From assembly GCA_000993565.1 (NCBI GenBank), contig LBWK01000001.1, positions 428,208 through 492,207 of the forward strand: a stretch of DNA of 64,000 nt, in the 5' to 3' direction. The position numbers were made by a program, and so were the translations under genes. Positions 5,725 to 49,745 of the stretch are shown piece after piece; position 1 is the stretch's first letter; each line of letters opens with the position of its first letter. The DNA comes from a candidate division WS6 bacterium GW2011_GWF2_39_15. Lineage in GTDB: Bacteria > Patescibacteriota > Dojkabacteria > SC72. The notes under the pieces are model-generated. The model did no database searches. It was not told the DNA's origin and saw nothing but the letters and a program-made list of their open reading frames with translations.

Positions 5725-5801
5725 TGGTAGGCCGAACGGGAATCGAACCCGTAACTGGAGTTTTGGAGACCCCTGTTTTAACCAATTCAAACTACCGACC
5801 C
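5725..5801 (-). tRNA. tRNA-Trp (anticodon CCA), CCA-3' encoded
   Basis: Cloverleaf read by hand: acceptor GGGTCGG/TCGGCCT (3 GU wobbles), D GTTT/AAAC, anticodon stem GGGGT/ACTCC loop CTCCAAA, T-loop TTCGATT; lies just downstream of trpS. Confidence 0.75.
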
Positions 5802-5892: not shown

Positions 5893-7407
5893 TTATTCTT
5901 TCTCAATCAGCTTATTTATCCCTACCATGCTCTGAAGCTTCTCAAGAGTTTGTACAACAACCTTTCTCGCCTTTTCTGTCCCTGAAATAAGTATATCCTT
6001 CGCTTCATCCGGTCTTTCTTCATAGTATTTTCTCTTCTCTCGTATAGGCTCAAGGAAGGTGTTAAGGGCAGCAAAAAGCTTCTCTTTGACTTCTATATCC
6101 CCTACTTTCCCTTGTGTGTATCTTTCTTTAAGATCGTTAATCTCGTCCTTATTTGTATTAAACGCATCATGATATATAAAGACGGGATTTCCTTCTACAG
6201 TGCCTTTATCACTGGCCTTAATCCTATTAGGATCGGTATACATAGACATCACTTTCTTCTTTAAAGTTTCTTCATCATCAGAGAGAAGTATGGCATTATG
6301 ACCGCTCTTACTCATTTTCTCTTTACCATCCGTACCAACCAGCCTCGCAACCCTTCCAACTCGACCCTCTGGCATTACAAACAGATTTCCATATGCCTTA
6401 TTAAAGTCTTTTGCTATCTCCCTTGCCTGCTCAATCACAGGAAGCTGGTCTTCTCCAACCGGCACTAAACTGGCGTTAAACTGGAGAATATCTGCAGCCT
6501 GTAGAATCGGGTAACTTATAAAGCCTAAACTCGGGTCTAACTTTTTATACCTCACCTCATCCTTTACAGATGGATTTCTCAACGCTCTTGAGTGCTTTAC
6601 CATATTAAGGAAGAAACTATACAAAACATGCGTTTCTGGGATACCTGATTCAAGGTAAATTGTAGACTTGTTAGGATCTATTCCTACAGCCAGATTATCA
6701 AGGAAGACATCATATACATTCTGGTTTATCAACTCTGATTTATCAAAGTAGTTGGCATATGCGTGATTATTTGCCAAAAGAATATATGTTTCGTATTCAT
6801 CCTGCAATTTAACCCTGTTCTCCAATGTTCCAACGTAATGTCCTATATGCAGTTTCCCGCTAGGAGTATCACCTGTGAGAATTCTTTTTTTACTTACAAC
6901 CCCGGCCTGTCTCTTGAGGTTAGGCTCTGTAATTTCAGCCACTTTATACTTACCAAGCACTTTAAGCAGGTCCTCAACTTTGATTTTAAGGCCGTAACCC
7001 TCCCTGCCAATTCCACATATAACCTTCTCGTTATCCATAACCATACTATCAATATAGATCTTTACCGGAAACTTTTCCTGAAGCTCTCCGAGTAGTGCTG
7101 GTGAGACTAAACCTGTTTCAAATCCTAATTTTTCTAAGTCATTTTCCTCTGCAAAGTTAAGACTCCTGCTCCCGCTTAATTTCTTCACCTCCTGAGTTCT
7201 TACATTCCGATCGTCCCTTCTAAGAATAACAATGTACTCATCCCTCTCGTTCTTAAAGAAAAGTGTTGACATACCATCTCCGTACGTCATAACTGTAACC
7301 CTCACGAGTTCATCAACCGACCTGTTTTTTGCGGCTGTCTGATCTACCTCCTCATACTTTATTCCAGTACTATTCAGTTTTTCTACTATTCTTTTATATG
7401 TATCCAT
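5893..7407 (-). CDS. trpS: tryptophanyl-tRNA synthetase with ~170-aa N-terminal extension
   Basis: Class I motifs PSGKLHIGHYVG (HIGH) and KMSKS; core ~335 aa typical of TrpRS; cognate tRNA-Trp adjacent; T-box leader upstream. N-terminal domain of unknown type (possibly editing/YbaK-like, unverified). Confidence 0.8.
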   Translation of the reverse strand: MDTYKRIVEKLNSTGIKYEEVDQTAAKNRSVDELVRVTVMTYGDGMSTLFFKNERDEYIVILRRDDRNVRTQEVKKLSGSRSLNFAEENDLEKLGFETGLVSPALLGELQEKFPVKIYIDSMVMDNEKVICGIGREGYGLKIKVEDLLKVLGKYKVAEITEPNLKRQAGVVSKKRILTGDTPSGKLHIGHYVGTLENRVKLQDEYETYILLANNHAYANYFDKSELINQNVYDVFLDNLAVGIDPNKSTIYLESGIPETHVLYSFFLNMVKHSRALRNPSVKDEVRYKKLDPSLGFISYPILQAADILQFNASLVPVGEDQLPVIEQAREIAKDFNKAYGNLFVMPEGRVGRVARLVGTDGKEKMSKSGHNAILLSDDEETLKKKVMSMYTDPNRIKASDKGTVEGNPVFIYHDAFNTNKDEINDLKERYTQGKVGDIEVKEKLFAALNTFLEPIREKRKYYEERPDEAKDILISGTEKARKVVVQTLEKLQSMVGINKLIEKE

Positions 7408-7419
7408 CACTTATGGTAT

Positions 7420-7700
7420 ATAAAATAAAAATCCCCATATAGATAGACTAACATATTTTCAAAGTTAATCTAACTACATGGGGACGACATATACATCGTG
7501 GTACCACCCCACTTCATCCCGCTAACCCATAAAAAGAGAATCTCTATAAGTTGGCGGACCTTATCGACTTTATCCAAACATCGATTTGAACTTTCACGCT
7601 GTTCCTACGGCTCTCATACTACTCTACTAACTACAAGCTAGCAGGGTTTCTGTTCGCTGCTCCCGGACCCATTCTCCCGATCAATGCATTTAAATATTCA
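7420..7700 (-). promoter_or_regulatory. T-box riboswitch leader of trpS
   Basis: Minus strand: TGGTATAAT extended -10 (rc of 7711-7719); T-box sequence AAGUGGGGUGGUACCACG (rc of 7497-7514; 15/18 to consensus AAUUAGGGUGGNACCGCG); antiterminator GGGG/CCCC with 7-nt bulge UGGUACC and A2 helix ACGAU/GUCGU; overlapping terminator UCCCCAUGUAG...CUAUAUGGGGA + UUUUUAUUUU (7420-7485); UGG-A in candidate specifier loop. Confidence 0.6.
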
Positions 7701-7734
7701 GTTGTAATTAATTATACCATATCTATATTTCTTC

Positions 7735-9306
7735 ATGATATACTTTTCTGTTATGCGAAAGAAACTCGCTTCCGTACTAAAAGCAATTGCACAGATAATT
7801 ACAGCCCTTCTGGCTGCCGGATTCATTATTGTTGGGACTATATTGGTTTATATGTATGCCAGAGGATACCGGTTGGATTTCGACGGCAAAGATATAAGGG
7901 AGACAGGCGTTGTCAACCTGGAAAGCAAACCCACAAGGGCAGAAATAACCATAAACGGGGAAAAGAACGGCAAAACCCCAAAGACAGTAGCATCAATTGA
8001 TGAAGGATATGCACAGGTAAAACTCAAAAAAGAAAAGTATTACGATTGGATAAAAAATGTCCCAGTGATAAGAGAGAAATCTACTCCCGTTACAGCCAAT
8101 ATGTTCCTCAAAGAGCCCGCAACAGAAGTTTTGGTAGAAATACCCAAGGAATACACTTTCGTAAAAGGCCAGGTATCTGAAAACCGCCAGCATATACTTT
8201 ATATTACTAAAGATAAGAAGAATATTTACACAATCTGGAGGTACGATCTAAATAAAAGTTTCTGGAATCTTAGTAATAACCCTCATATAATAACAACAAT
8301 CGAAGATCCAGCCGTTCAAAACCTCACTATGATTCCATCGCCAGGAGCAAGTAATCTACTTCTCCACTACTCTTTCACACAATCTGATATAACAAAAACA
8401 AAGGTTCTTCTTTTTAATACAGAGCAGGTTGATACAGATGGCCAACTTTTGAACCTAGAAAAGTTTTTAGGAACCTATTCCATTACATGGGCAAAATCAG
8501 GTTCATATATAATACTCGAATCAGTAAATGATGTTCTCTCATACAACATAGAAAGCACGGCAAAGTCCCTCCTATATAAGAAGGCAGAGACAGAAAACCT
8601 TGTATGGACAACAGATACATCCCTTAACTTCTACTACCTACAGAAACTTAGTGATAACACGGGCAACTACTTCACCCTTGAACAACTAAACCTAGACGGT
8701 ACGAACGCGAAAACGTTGATTCCAAGAATATACTATCAAACAGATAAAGCATATATCGAGAACATAAGGAAAACGGAGTTTACTTTTATACCGTTTAGCA
8801 ATACCCCTCAGAACACCAGATTCATTGGAGAGATATCAGCCATATCAATAGATCAGACAACAAAAGGTATATATATTTCTACTGAATATGCAGCATACTG
8901 GTATGGGACAGAAGAGGATAAGTACATTATGATAAATCCATATCCATCACAGCTTATATCAATATCCGATAATAAACGAATGGCTCTTTTCAAAGATCTG
9001 ACGAATGGATACTATGGAATATTCACCTTTGATAAAACACAAAGCGATCCGGTGACCCTGCTTGGAACCAAAATAGTTATAAAAGATGAAAAAGAGGTAA
9101 CAAATGTAAACTGGGTGAACTCTGCAAATCTTTCGTATCAATCAGAAGGATCCGTCTATATTATGGATAAGGACGGAGACAATAAAGTCATGATGAAAAC
9201 ACTCACAAGCCCAATATACTTCTCTCTCTCAACCTCAGGAAAATATATCCATACATTAGAGTCCATTACGAATCAGACAAAGGTTGTGAAATACACAATA
9301 CAGTAG
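7735..9306 (+). CDS. membrane-anchored PEGA-domain protein
   Basis: 523 aa; N-terminal TM helix then PEGA-like segment (AEITINGEKNGKTPKTV...GYAQVKL), large C-terminal region. Confidence 0.45.
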   Translation: MIYFSVMRKKLASVLKAIAQIITALLAAGFIIVGTILVYMYARGYRLDFDGKDIRETGVVNLESKPTRAEITINGEKNGKTPKTVASIDEGYAQVKLKKEKYYDWIKNVPVIREKSTPVTANMFLKEPATEVLVEIPKEYTFVKGQVSENRQHILYITKDKKNIYTIWRYDLNKSFWNLSNNPHIITTIEDPAVQNLTMIPSPGASNLLLHYSFTQSDITKTKVLLFNTEQVDTDGQLLNLEKFLGTYSITWAKSGSYIILESVNDVLSYNIESTAKSLLYKKAETENLVWTTDTSLNFYYLQKLSDNTGNYFTLEQLNLDGTNAKTLIPRIYYQTDKAYIENIRKTEFTFIPFSNTPQNTRFIGEISAISIDQTTKGIYISTEYAAYWYGTEEDKYIMINPYPSQLISISDNKRMALFKDLTNGYYGIFTFDKTQSDPVTLLGTKIVIKDEKEVTNVNWVNSANLSYQSEGSVYIMDKDGDNKVMMKTLTSPIYFSLSTSGKYIHTLESITNQTKVVKYTIQ

Positions 9307-16381: not shown

Positions 16382-18970
16382 CTACATCTTGTCTATACTT
16401 TCTATTCCCAGCAGGTTCAATCCGCTCTTGAGTACAGTTGTAACAGCTTCCACAAGAACCAATCTTGCCTCTTTTTCCTCTGCTCTATCAGCATTTAATA
16501 CCTGATATTTTGAATAAAAGTTATTAAAGAGATTTGCGAGCTCAAAAACATACGTACATATTAAATGCGAAGCAAAATTTGTCTGAGCACTAAGTACAAC
16601 CTTCGGAAACTCTATAAGCTTTTTAATTATAGCCTGCTCTTCAGGACTTTCTAATACACTCCCTTTTAATTCCTTCGAGTATTCCCCTGCCTTCTTTAAA
16701 ATAGAATTGGCTCTTGCGTATGTATAAAGGATATATGGACCGGAATACCCACTCATATTAAGAAAGGTGTCTGGATTATAGTTAACATCCTTATGGAACT
16801 CATGAGACAGTATGCCGAATTTCAAAGCTGCAATAGCAACTTTTTTAGCTATAGAATTGGTATCCTCCTCGCTAAATTCCTCCTTATCTTTAATCCTCTC
16901 TTTGGATACAGCTATCAGCTCGTTAAGCATATCTTCGTAAGAAAAGCTCTTTCCCATTCTGGCAGAGGTCTTCTTCCCCTCGAATAACAGCCAGCCGAAA
17001 CCGATATGCGTATACCTGCCTTTGAACTTTGGATCGATAAGTTCCAAGGCTTTGATCATATTCTTAAAATAATCAACCTGCTCTACTGAAGTAGTAATGA
17101 TAGAAAGGTACAGATCCGGGTACTCTTCAAACTTTTTAAAAGCCAGTCCAAGATCTTTTGCACCATATGTAGGAGCCCCGTCAGAAGTGATAAAGGCAAA
17201 CTTCTTTAATCCGTATTCTTCAGCATCGAATATTACAGCCCCTTTATCCTCTTTAAACACTTTTCCAATGTTTTCTTTCACTAGTTTAATCCCTTTCTCC
17301 ATATTTTCGCTTTCCGGATATTGCCTGTCATATACCACACCAAGCTCTGCAAATACATGATCCTGATACTGGATACTCAAGTCTCTGGTATATTGATAAA
17401 GCTCATTAATCCGGTCATTTTCCTTGCTGTACAAAAGCTTATTGATTTTTCTAACCTCTTCCTCCACTTCTTTATCCTTATCCATACTTAGATTTCCGAA
17501 GACATAACAATCGCTGAAGAACTTCGCAACCTTCTTTATCCCTTCTTTTTCCTTAATTTCATCTAAATAATCCTTTACCATCTCCATATCTTTATCACCA
17601 AGCTCAAAGATCTTGCTCTCTGGACTTACCTTCATAATTACACCCCATAATGCTTTGGCGATCATTAACCCTACATCACCAAAGTAGTTGGCCTTAATTA
17701 CTTCATAGCCTGAATATTCAAAAAGCCTTGTAAGCGAGAGACCTGTAATACCACTTTTGATATGCCCCATTGTAAGCTCCTTATGTGTATTTGGCTGTCC
17801 GAACTCAATCATCACTTTCTTACCGTCCCCAGTTTGATTCTTTCCCCAACTCTCATCCACACTTAGTAACTGACCCTTAATTGAATTCTTATTTACATAC
17901 ATATTAACAAACCCCGGCATAACAGATTCAGCCTTAACTACAATCCCTCCAAGCTTCCCAGCAATCCCTTTTGCTACCTCAATAGGAGATTTTCCTAATT
18001 TTCCTGCTACCCGCATTGCTACAGTACTTGTATAATCTCCATACTTCTTATCTTTAACCGGTGAGACATCAATTAAGTGCGCCTCAAGAGATTTATTAAG
18101 AGAGATATAAAGCTGATTTTGAATCTCACTTTCTATACAATCTGCTTCGTATATAAATTGTTTATCCTTTTTTCCCTCATTACTCTTTGATGATTTCTCC
18201 TTGGAACTATTGCCAACCTTAGGTCTCACGACCCCTTCTATATCTCTAGTCTTATAGTCTACTTCTACAAACTCATGCTCTTTATCCAGAACGATAACTT
18301 CTCCTTCTCCGCCGAAATGTGATGTGATGAAAGCAACAAACTCATTAGCCGCTTTGATAATATTCTTTTCATTGATCCCTTTAAACCCGTCCATTATAAA
18401 ATAGCCATCTTGGGAATCCTCTGTAAGCTTAGTCCTTTCACATTGTCTCCAGTTAAGAGAAAGTGTTGATACATCATAATCATCTTCCCAGATTAGATCT
18501 CCTTGTTTTGGTGATTTTCCCTTCTCTTCCCCAATTCCTAGCCAATGTTCATCTCCTTTAGCCAATTTCAAAACAAAATCCCCGTACACAGTACTTAGAT
18601 CCTCTCCTCCGAAAGGAGTTATGTAGTTAATGCTAAATGAGTTATATAGATCAACAATCGGGTTGATTCTTGGGAGATTACCTCCTTCTATTACTCTAGA
18701 TGCTAATGCGAAGTGGGTAGGTTTAACCTTTTTAGGATTTGCACCAAATTTTCTAAATGCTTCAAAATATACTTTTATATACTCGTTATTTTCAATATCC
18801 TCTTTGCTCTTGAATCTTTCCAAGAAGTCTTTTTGGGAGGCCTCTTTAAACATTGAGACCAATTTTTCATTCTCACTGTTCCAATGATTACTGAAATCCC
18901 TAATTACAGGAATAGCGATGAAAATATTAGGGAATTTTTCAAAAACCTCTCTCTCTATCTTAAACTTCAT
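16382..18970 (-). CDS. argS: arginyl-tRNA synthetase fused to N-terminal B3/4 (PheT-like) domain
   Basis: 862 aa; residues ~80-130 (LPRINPIVDLYNSFSINYITPFGGEDL) resemble B3/4 tRNA-binding/editing domain; ArgRS N-domain (YGDYTSTVAMRVAGKLGKSPIEVAK), HIGH-like QPNTHKELTMGH, DALR-type C-terminus. Confidence 0.75.
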   Translation of the reverse strand: MKFKIEREVFEKFPNIFIAIPVIRDFSNHWNSENEKLVSMFKEASQKDFLERFKSKEDIENNEYIKVYFEAFRKFGANPKKVKPTHFALASRVIEGGNLPRINPIVDLYNSFSINYITPFGGEDLSTVYGDFVLKLAKGDEHWLGIGEEKGKSPKQGDLIWEDDYDVSTLSLNWRQCERTKLTEDSQDGYFIMDGFKGINEKNIIKAANEFVAFITSHFGGEGEVIVLDKEHEFVEVDYKTRDIEGVVRPKVGNSSKEKSSKSNEGKKDKQFIYEADCIESEIQNQLYISLNKSLEAHLIDVSPVKDKKYGDYTSTVAMRVAGKLGKSPIEVAKGIAGKLGGIVVKAESVMPGFVNMYVNKNSIKGQLLSVDESWGKNQTGDGKKVMIEFGQPNTHKELTMGHIKSGITGLSLTRLFEYSGYEVIKANYFGDVGLMIAKALWGVIMKVSPESKIFELGDKDMEMVKDYLDEIKEKEGIKKVAKFFSDCYVFGNLSMDKDKEVEEEVRKINKLLYSKENDRINELYQYTRDLSIQYQDHVFAELGVVYDRQYPESENMEKGIKLVKENIGKVFKEDKGAVIFDAEEYGLKKFAFITSDGAPTYGAKDLGLAFKKFEEYPDLYLSIITTSVEQVDYFKNMIKALELIDPKFKGRYTHIGFGWLLFEGKKTSARMGKSFSYEDMLNELIAVSKERIKDKEEFSEEDTNSIAKKVAIAALKFGILSHEFHKDVNYNPDTFLNMSGYSGPYILYTYARANSILKKAGEYSKELKGSVLESPEEQAIIKKLIEFPKVVLSAQTNFASHLICTYVFELANLFNNFYSKYQVLNADRAEEKEARLVLVEAVTTVLKSGLNLLGIESIDKM

Positions 18971-19319: not shown

Positions 19320-19616
19320 AACAAAAAACCCCATCCTTAAACCACATATACCTGTGATCTAGGGACGGGGTTACCGTGGTGCCACCCTGGTTCACTAACT
19401 ATATAATGAGATAGTTAGCCTTAATAGATTACCCTACTTTACTCGCCATCCATAATCTTATTATAGATTAGCGGTATTTCTTCGGATATATGATAGAAGC
19501 TCTATTCCAATACTTAAGATGCCGGTCTTCCACTATCACCTGCTCGCTAGTACCATAACAAAGTATTGTACTTTTCTTCCTGAGAGAATTATAGCTAAAA
19601 GTAACAAAGTTTACAA
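19320..19616 (-). promoter_or_regulatory. T-box riboswitch leader (Arg) preceding tRNA-Arg x3 + argS
   Basis: Minus strand: promoter TTGTAA-17-TATAAT (rc 19588-19616); T-box sequence AGGGUGGCACCACGG (rc 19374-19388), bulge UGGC matches discriminator G of the Arg tRNAs; A2 helix ACGG-UAAC-CCGU; terminator AACCCCGUCC...GGAUGGGGUU + UUUUUU (19320-19371); AGA flanked by A's in candidate specifier loop (CCGAAGAAAUACC). Confidence 0.5.
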
Positions 19617-48960: not shown

Positions 48961-49745
48961 CATTCCTGTTACTTAGATCTAAGTATCTATTTACTTAGAT
49001 GACCTAATTTCTTAGGCGGATATACTTTTGTATATCTCTCTACATTACTGTAGAGGTCGGACTATATCTTCTTCCACATATTTTTGTAAATGGAAGTCTA
49101 ACGTTTAGCCTCTGAGGATTCTTGCAACTAATTCTTTCTTTTCCCACTTTTTACCTTTTCCCATCTGATTCATCTCATATGAATAATCTAACAACTTCAG
49201 CATTCCTTTCGGACTAAGATGTTGCTTATTCTTCATCATCACTATTGCATCTCTAAAAATAGAGAATGCTTTTAGTTTTGTTTTCAACGGATATGTTTCG
49301 AAGAATGGGATAACTCTTTCATAACACGGATTAATTCCGGATATTTGGTATGTATAAACACTATATGGGGAAGTTTTTCGATGTATACTTCCGCAACCAA
49401 ATACTTTCATAATCTCTTCTAGAAACCATTTATTCTTTTCATGTTGATAAACATAAAAAGCTGGTTCTATTCTAAAACCGTATTTAACATTAATACGATT
49501 TTTAATATTAAGACAGAAACTCCCTTCTCCATCTACAAATCCTGAGATAAACCATTTAGAACTTTCGGTATTAGGGATATTAGTTACAAATCTTTCCTGC
49601 TGATTGTCCAAAAACATGAAGTTTTTACTTAATAAATTAAGTATCCATGCCGTTTAGGATGTCCCAGCATACAGTTAGATTTTACAACGGCCCGATATCT
49701 GGTAGCAAAACCAAGTAATAATTATCATTACTACTTAGTAGATAT
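48961..49745 (-). mobile_element. group I intron in 23S rRNA (domain IV, helix 69 3' side)
   Basis: Exon junction reconstructed by alignment to E. coli: ...ACTATAACGGT | intron | CCTAAGGTAGCG...; upstream exon ends in U, intron ends in G (plus c48961); AT-rich insert containing HE ORF. Confidence 0.6.
49105..49617 (-). CDS. LAGLIDADG homing endonuclease (single-motif, intron-encoded)
   Basis: 170 aa; ISGFVDGEGSF LAGLIDADG motif; lies entirely within 23S intron. Confidence 0.8.
   Translation of the reverse strand: MFLDNQQERFVTNIPNTESSKWFISGFVDGEGSFCLNIKNRINVKYGFRIEPAFYVYQHEKNKWFLEEIMKVFGCGSIHRKTSPYSVYTYQISGINPCYERVIPFFETYPLKTKLKAFSIFRDAIVMMKNKQHLSPKGMLKLLDYSYEMNQMGKGKKWEKKELVARILRG

Follow-up and report, generated by a model that had tools for sequence, protein, structure and literature searches.

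A probable tryptophan T-box riboswitch with an ultrashort Stem I and a terminator-like hairpin upstream of trpS in a Dojkabacteria genome

RESULTS

The trpS locus and its leader

The window analyzed here, a stretch of 64,000 nucleotides, is part of the genome of candidate division WS6 (Dojkabacteria) bacterium GW2011_GWF2_39_15; the tryptophanyl-tRNA synthetase (TrpRS) that it encodes is 100% identical to this organism's "Tryptophan-tRNA ligase." The gene, trpS, occupies positions 5893 to 7407 of the minus strand, with its ATG at 7407. According to Pfam, its product joins an N-terminal YbaK-type tRNA_edit domain (PF04073) to a synthetase core of the class I Trp/Tyr type (PF00579), and such TrpRS-tRNA_edit fusions are common among Patescibacteria relatives. 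The arginyl-tRNA synthetase (ArgRS) encoded at 18970 to 16382 carries an N-terminal domain of another kind, B3/4 (PF03483). An editing domain is normally absent from both TrpRS and ArgRS, which makes these N-terminal fusions unusual.

An intergenic gap of 327 bp (7408 to 7734) separates trpS from a divergent gene for a PEGA-domain protein (7735 to 9306), and the T-box leader of trpS fills most of it, from 7719 to 7421 of the minus strand. All leader elements lie on this strand, and their coordinates are given below in the 5'-to-3' direction. A T-box leader at this place had been proposed by a reading of the letters and open reading frames of the window, made without database searches (the sequence-only reading). 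The proposal is borne out by competing antiterminator and terminator helices, by a match to the Rfam T-box family (RF00230), and by covariation among related leaders; moreover, direct reading located each of the sequence elements it had quoted on the minus strand. An SRP-like RNA, with which the region had at first been confused, found no Rfam support.

Membership in the T-box family

The leader belongs to the T-box family. RF00230 matches positions 7693 to 7477 over the full model with 42.9 bits (E = 3.4e-8 when the region alone is searched and 4e-6 when the search covers the whole window). This covariance-model search had been put forward as a check by the sequence-only reading, and its outcome is divided: the match is significant, but its score falls below the Rfam gathering score of 93. 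Hence, the match is found only with E-value thresholds, and a default Rfam scan at the gathering threshold reported no T-box in the window. At less than half of the gathering score, the leader is not a called member by the Rfam rule, which counts against our interpretation; its relatives score 32 to 63 bits against the same model. The alignment accounts for the low score, since 72 Stem I positions are deleted and 37 nt are inserted before Stem III. An ultrashort Stem I without the platform that contacts the tRNA elbow therefore keeps the leader under the threshold.

The T-box sequence itself, AAGUGGGGUGGUACCACG (7514 to 7497), agrees with the Rfam consensus AAaUaGGGUGGUACCGCG at 15 of 18 positions, the very count given by the sequence-only reading. 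The core motif GGGTGGNACCRCG is present in two copies in the window against 0.00 expected, the second copy belonging to another T-box at 19593 to 19358. Folding gave a mixed picture: the separate hairpins fold stably, whereas in the minimum free energy (MFE) fold of all 295 nt of the leader, the Stem I region is paired with that of an extra hairpin (hairpin X, described below). Because it is at odds with the covariation, this whole-leader fold was dropped for comparative analysis.

Related leaders

A genome scan based on an alignment of TrpRS relatives yielded 80 loci, cited below by our L numbers where needed. T-box cores were found upstream of trpS in L001, L002, L003, and L017, with a UGGU bulge, and in L069 and L078, with UGGC; the same leader heads the trpS operon in L022. 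Look-ups of the encoding contigs added L201, L205, L203, and L204. Metagenomes were scanned with the specifier-generic pattern TGATNNNGAGAANNNRNNNNGGAGN9GAAA, which was aimed at non-Trp members. Among the matches listed, nearly all were due to chance and only L115 (truncated), L184, L185, and L198 were real, all of them carrying UGG. A covariance model of the decoding half of the leader (R1) was run on 574 kb of Patescibacteria loci and on the window. It recovered the known leaders at 35 to 94 bits (77.8 for the window leader); new in its output were L034 and, with a weak match, L004. All leaders retrieved in this search were of the Trp type, with none in the window besides that of trpS, and a non-Trp specifier was encountered neither by R1 over the 574 kb nor among the matches listed for the metagenome scan.

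The leader precedes trpS or a trpS operon in L001, L002, L003/L205, L017/L185, L201, L022, L203, L204, and L034. The closest relative is L001, whose TrpRS is 77% identical. Genes that follow these leaders are all Trp related, namely, trpS, tRNA-Trp, and the genes for a TrpD-like Glycos_transf_3 protein and for a protein of the DIT1_PvcA family, the family of aromatic amino-acid isonitrile synthases.

Three of the settings outside trpS deserve mention on their own. The TrpD-like Glycos_transf_3 gene, encoding 444 amino acids, stands behind the same leader in L184 (6995 to 8326) and L198 (9379 to 10707). The named relatives of its product are all from Patescibacteria, and we therefore assign L184 and L198 to this group as well. 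In L029 (460 to 1560), the short-Stem-I Trp leader appears to control the gene of the DIT1_PvcA (isonitrile-synthase-like) protein. These settings hint at Trp salvage or Trp-consuming chemistry in organisms that are believed to be incapable of making Trp.

Even smaller forms, mini T-boxes of about 105 to 130 nt, precede trpS in L069 (about 1943 to 2070; Woesebacteria) and L078 (about 2377 to 2480; a metagenome-assembled genome of an unclassified "bacterium"). In them, a K-turn and an ultrashort Stem I are followed by just a short Stem III, an antiterminator, and a terminator, and the L078 element scores 32 bits with RF00230. These two sequences are without Stem II and without the Stem IIA/B pseudoknot, both of which known short-Stem-I T-boxes reportedly need.

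Nine leaders from Patescibacteria were aligned with MAFFT (alignment A2), and 33 proposed pairs were counted. In this alignment, 96.9% of the cells are paired, and 19 of the 33 pairs show changes on both sides. None of 500 shuffles reached the observed values, and sliding the partners by 1 to 3 columns left 33 to 45% of the cells paired. The comparison with trpS leaders of related genomes that the sequence-only reading had called for thus came out in its favor, the T-box, bulge, and terminator elements being kept with compensatory changes.

A short Stem I with an apical specifier

Stem I (7687 to 7659) is ultrashort, which is the unusual feature of this leader and had escaped the sequence-only reading, as had the lack of an elbow platform. 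Reading from its 5' end, a GC is followed by an AUU bulge with tandem G-A, the helix UCGG(G):(U)CCGG with the apical loop AGAAUGGG, and then GA and GC, so that a K-turn-type GA motif lies between the basal GC/GC pairing and the helix. The same 4- to 5-bp helix capped by the specifier loop is present in all relatives. In the nine leaders, pairing reaches 100% at columns 3-4/30-31 and 10-14/23-27, with three compensatory pairs, and column pair 11/26 varies between GC, CG, GU, and UA. The distal bulge and distal loop, which form the elbow-binding platform, are absent from Stem I in the RF00230 alignment and in all relatives.

The apical loop contains UGG, the Trp codon, at 7671 to 7669, followed by a purine, G7668. 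This triplet is complementary to the anticodon CCA of tRNA-Trp. The loop AGAAUGGG with its UGG is invariant in 9/9 aligned leaders, and UGG is the sole triplet common to all 17 distinct leaders found, including those with divergent apical loops (AGGGAUGGA in L029, UGGUAUGGG in L203, UGAUUGGGA in L004, AUGGUUGGG in L069, and UGGAUUGGG in L078). Two other registers within the loop were rejected, AUG being excluded by L004, L069, and L078 and GGG by L029. Since UGG is invariant and every leader precedes a Trp-related gene, we take UGG 7671 to 7669 to be the specifier, an assignment that rests on invariance and gene context rather than on codon switching. The purine after it is a G, where A is usual, which is a point against our interpretation.

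The specifier had earlier been placed elsewhere, in a leader drawn as a canonical T-box, in which UGG is followed by A in the loop UUUGGAUAAAG (7578 to 7568). The UGG assigned here lies 95 nt upstream of that one. The appeal of the earlier placement is the A itself, the purine that follows the codon in most T-boxes; the position of the loop, however, speaks against it, as UUUGGAUAAAG lies 3' of Stem II and of the IIA/B pseudoknot, where no T-box has its specifier, in a stretch that Rfam aligns as an insertion. Furthermore, the loop belongs to hairpin X, whose conservation is limited to the helix, and its UGG is missing from all relatives: L001 has UUUUUAUAAAG at this place, and L002, L017, L022, L184, and L198 have unrelated sequences. 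We give this placement of the specifier hardly any credence.

Stem II, the pseudoknot, hairpin X, and Stem III

Stem II (7657 to 7610) comprises a lower helix, an S-turn, and a 9-bp distal hairpin. In the lower helix, the pairs 33/80, 34/79, 38/75, and 39/74 covary (CG, AU, and GC). The S-turn, of the loop-E type, sets GAAA (7650 to 7647) opposite AGUA (7620 to 7617), a combination kept in 8/9 leaders, with L184 having UUAG instead of AGUA. The distal hairpin folds with -10.7 kcal/mol and is variable among the leaders. The Stem IIA/B pseudoknot follows (7609 to 7588), containing an F-box-like GCGUGA. Its IIA helix pairs CGU (7609 to 7607) with GCG (7599 to 7597), two of the three pairs being compensatory, and in its IIB helix, the loop GAAC (7604 to 7601) pairs with GUUC (7591 to 7588), with 93% of the cells paired and compensatory changes in 5/5 pairs.

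Hairpin X (7585 to 7563) lies between the pseudoknot and Stem III and has no counterpart in the RF00230 model. Its helix, AUCGAU/GUCGAU (columns 108-113/129-134), is 96% paired with three compensatory pairs and encloses a variable loop of nonconserved sequence, the one that contains UUUGGAUAAAG in the window. A role of hairpin X as a substitute elbow platform was considered and remains pure speculation, as no conserved T-loop-like motif is present in this loop.

Stem III (7557 to 7519) is flanked by AAGG (7562 to 7559) on its 5' side and by AA (7514 to 7513) on its 3' side, and it folds with -16.9 kcal/mol (z = -3.8). Its variable sequence could not be aligned by MAFFT; folding nevertheless gives a stable hairpin between AAG and AA in 9/9 leaders, the other helices being established by covariation. 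These flanks fit the RRRxG-Stem III-AA motif described for T-boxes (PMC7583486).

Antiterminator, T-box bulge, and tRNA-Trp

The antiterminator (7510 to 7480) is made of helix A1, the 7-nt T-box bulge, and helix A2, all as the sequence-only reading had described them. A1 pairs GGGG (7510 to 7507) with CCCC (7483 to 7480), A2 pairs ACGAU (7499 to 7495) with GUCGU (7488 to 7484), and the bulge UGGUACC (7506 to 7500) begins with UGGU (7506 to 7503). The structure aligns to RF00230 with high posterior probability and has a folding energy of -11.6 kcal/mol. Across the relatives, A1 and A2 are 94 to 100% paired, with GC-to-AU changes on both sides.

The predicted ligand is encoded in the window by a tRNA-Trp gene (5725 to 5801, minus strand) with the anticodon CCA, A73, and an encoded CCA end, as identified by ARAGORN and the Rfam tRNA model. 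The correspondence between the UGGU bulge and the discriminator A73 that had been pointed out for this tRNA is supported and gains strength from covariation: the last base of UGGN and the discriminator N73 of the tRNA-Trp gene at the same locus are complementary in 6/6 loci, as U:A in the window, L001, and L002 and as C:G in L203, L204, and L034. Because the bulge base tracks the discriminator, it provides independent evidence for tRNA-Trp as the ligand.

These tRNA genes have features of their own. In addition to A73, which it has in common with L001 and L002, the tRNA-Trp of the window has a G1-U72 pair; G73 is found in L203, L204, and L034. In tRNA-Trp, A73 is the archaeal and eukaryotic type, and bacteria normally have G73. 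In L203 (about 1000 to 1260), a tRNA-Trp gene seems to be interrupted within the anticodon: about 190 nt are inserted between nucleotides 34 and 35, and this insert contains a complete second tRNA-Trp gene (1101 to 1173); ARAGORN reports the inner gene only.

Putative promoter and terminator, and level of control

The extended -10 element TGGTATAAT, which had been noticed before in the gap, is present at 7719 to 7711 and probably serves as the promoter, with transcription likely starting at about 7705 to 7703. In L001, L002, L003, L017, and L201, TATG(G/A)TATAAT is followed by ACAAYU at the same distance. A simple promoter scan did not report this element because it has no -35 hexamer.

At the other end of the leader lies a predicted intrinsic terminator (7484 to 7422), composed of a 20-bp hairpin (7484 to 7432) and the U-tract UUUUUAUUUU (7431 to 7422). 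The hairpin reuses positions 7484 to 7480 from the 3' strand of the antiterminator, so that the two structures compete. Such sharing had been recognized by the sequence-only reading, which gave the terminator a length of 11 bp; the hairpin in fact comprises 11 bp plus 9 bp. With -27.9 kcal/mol (z = -7.0), it is much stronger than the antiterminator, a relation known from classic T-boxes. In the relatives, 84% of the cells are paired and 13/20 pairs are compensatory, and a U-tract stands directly 3' of the hairpin in 12/12 leaders examined. The hairpin was missed by a simple terminator scan, which allows loops of at most 8 nt; the loop here has 11 nt. We count this miss as a point against our interpretation.

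Could the 3' hairpin instead sequester the translation start, as in the translational T-boxes of actinobacterial ileS genes? All ultrashort-Stem-I T-boxes so far reported are translational (PMC7583486), and no more than 24 nt separate the hairpin from the ATG. Nevertheless, neither the hairpin nor the stretch that follows it contains a Shine-Dalgarno (SD)-like sequence, the helix includes neither the ATG nor the 24 nt preceding it, and the GGGG of the hairpin is 25 nt away from the ATG. The genome also appears to be free of SD sequences, as 0/33 long open reading frames (ORFs) in the window have GGAG, GAGG, or AGGA within 20 nt of the start, a crude survey in which the first ATG of each ORF was taken as the start. 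Therefore, SD sequestration is not an available mechanism here, and in an organism seemingly without SD-led initiation, the output of the riboswitch must be transcriptional. The relatives argue in the same direction. Besides the U-tract that follows the hairpin in every leader examined, the regulated unit of L204 and L034 starts with a tRNA-Trp gene, which is not translated and begins 3 to 4 nt after the U-tract, and in L184 and L198, an SD sequence and an ATG are found about 50 to 100 nt downstream of the hairpin. Translational control is in our view improbable. Since there is no SD sequence to sequester and a tRNA gene directly follows the leader in relatives, we favor transcriptional control.

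The 3' end of the 16S rRNA keeps CCUCC. Several starts in the window have a TATAAT-like box 6 to 12 nt upstream of the ATG, which suggests that many mRNAs are leaderless.

A second T-box and other features of the window

The second T-box of the window (19593 to 19358, minus strand) matches RF00230 with 73.8 bits and has a long Stem I, a probable AGA specifier, and a UGGC bulge. Because its Stem I is long, the short form is a property of the Trp leader class rather than the result of a genome-wide reduction of T-boxes. Directly after it come three tRNA-Arg genes on the minus strand, with the anticodons UCU (19301 to 19226), GCG (19162 to 19086), and UCG (19067 to 18993), and only then argS (18970 to 16382, minus strand). 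Given this order, the Arg T-box appears to regulate the very genes that encode its ligand; G73 of tRNA-Arg(UCU) matches the UGGC bulge. The order of T-box, tRNA, and synthetase also occurs for Trp in L034, L203, and L204. Control of tRNA genes by a T-box is, to our knowledge, undescribed, and a literature search on the subject returned nothing.

Elsewhere in the window, the 23S rRNA gene (51915 to 47980) is 3.9 kb long, with large insertions, and contains a subthreshold group I intron match at 49194 to 49038 (37.8 bits versus 50).

DISCUSSION

We propose that the leader transcribed from the extended -10 element is a Trp-specific T-box riboswitch and that trpS is regulated through it by transcription attenuation, and we put the probability of this reading at roughly 0.85. 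According to this model, the ultrashort Stem I module would offer UGG 7671 to 7669 and the purine 3' of it to tRNA-Trp for pairing with the anticodon CCA. The resulting codon-anticodon duplex would probably be clamped by the Stem II S-turn, itself positioned by the IIA/B pseudoknot, by analogy with the solved ileS T-boxes of actinobacteria, with no distal platform of Stem I to stack on the tRNA elbow. At the other end, UGGU of the bulge would pair with the free A73-C-C-A of uncharged tRNA-Trp and stabilize the weak antiterminator (-11.6 kcal/mol), allowing RNA polymerase to read through into trpS. With charged tRNA or no tRNA, the stronger terminator (-27.9 kcal/mol) and its U-tract would form, and transcription would stop 15 nt before the ATG. 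Binding of the tRNA and termination at the hairpin are the steps that we predict from the sequence.

A score under the Rfam threshold and the loss of most of Stem I might also be expected of a decayed, nonfunctional T-box remnant, or of a chance resemblance, in a reduced genome. Yet leaders from several Patescibacteria lineages have retained this shortened form, compensatory changes are seen in all of the helices, the pseudoknot among them, and the bulge base tracks the tRNA discriminator. We consider a remnant very unlikely because a decaying element would show neither such covariation nor such tracking.

The attenuation model has to be weighed against what is published on short T-boxes. A long Stem I with its elbow platform is deemed to be required by transcriptional T-boxes, which must capture the tRNA rapidly, before the polymerase reaches the terminator, and only translational switches are deemed able to afford a short Stem I (PMC7583486, section 6.2). 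Stem I's of intermediate and ultrashort length are accordingly placed with the translational T-boxes, the reason given being the cotranscriptional time limit (PMC7583486), and the same association is repeated in the TBDB paper and in a 2024 single-molecule study. This published requirement speaks against our model, in which efficient cotranscriptional sensing without an elbow platform is a prediction. A natural class joining an ultrashort Stem I to a terminator would be a direct test of the kinetic argument: if it is real, either not all transcriptional T-boxes need fast capture through an elbow platform, or novel parts make up for the time or contacts that are lacking. Hairpin X (7585 to 7563) and the unusually long, 53-nt terminator hairpin would be candidates for such parts. 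The leader could moreover serve as a compact engineering template of about 270 nt.

We found no mention of T-boxes in Patescibacteria in a literature search that also covered the names CPR, Parcubacteria, Microgenomates, and Saccharibacteria. T-boxes nonetheless exist in this group and are missed at the Rfam threshold, the members found here scoring 32 to 63 bits against the required 93.

With the canonical transcriptional T-boxes (RF00230; Bacillus subtilis tyrS and glyQS), the leader shares the 7-nt UGGN bulge, the competition of A1/A2 with a terminator followed by a U-tract, the K-turn at the base of Stem I, the Stem II S-turn, the IIA/B pseudoknot, a purine-flanked Stem III, and a specifier that matches the regulated aminoacyl-tRNA synthetase gene. 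It differs from them in its Stem I, which is shorter (about 29 nt versus about 100 nt), holds the specifier in the apical loop rather than in a side bulge, and lacks the AG bulge and distal loop that make up the interdigitated T-loop platform, implying no contact with the tRNA elbow. It also has an extra conserved, lineage-specific hairpin between the pseudoknot and Stem III. As far as is known, the tryptophan T-boxes of Firmicutes possess a Stem I of the standard long kind and would satisfy the Rfam threshold. These T-boxes, found in trpS, trp operon, and trpX leaders (for example, PMC9382623), have in common with ours the UGG specifier and Trp-related downstream genes.

The nearest architecture is that of the ultrashort-Stem-I translational T-boxes of ileS from Mycobacterium tuberculosis, M. 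smegmatis, and Nocardia farcinica, as presented, after Sherwood et al. (2015), in PMC7583486, from which we also took the definition of the class. On that description, both groups have a short Stem I, an apical-loop specifier with a 3' purine, no elbow platform, and a dependence on the Stem II S-turn and the IIA/B pseudoknot, which in our leader is predicted. Even the place of the purine is similar: nucleotide 19 in N. farcinica, as given there, and nucleotide 20 here, counted from the first paired base. Of the traits that define this class II translational type, the leader thus has the apical specifier, Stem II, and Stem IIA/B, while it is without the SD-sequestering platform. The output here is a terminator hairpin with a U-tract and theirs an SD sequestrator, the specifier reads Trp (UGG) and theirs Ile, the purine after the codon is G here, and the hosts are Patescibacteria (WS6/Dojkabacteria and other groups) rather than Actinobacteria. 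The hairpin before Stem III is likewise an addition relative to the ileS elements described there. Judged by sequence comparison, the combination of an ultrashort Stem I, an extra hairpin, and a putative intrinsic terminator, conserved across several Patescibacteria lineages, is new. At somewhat less than even odds, we tentatively suggest that the leader typifies an undescribed class of Patescibacteria Trp T-boxes, in which an ultrashort Stem I without elbow contact would be joined to a cotranscriptional terminator switch.
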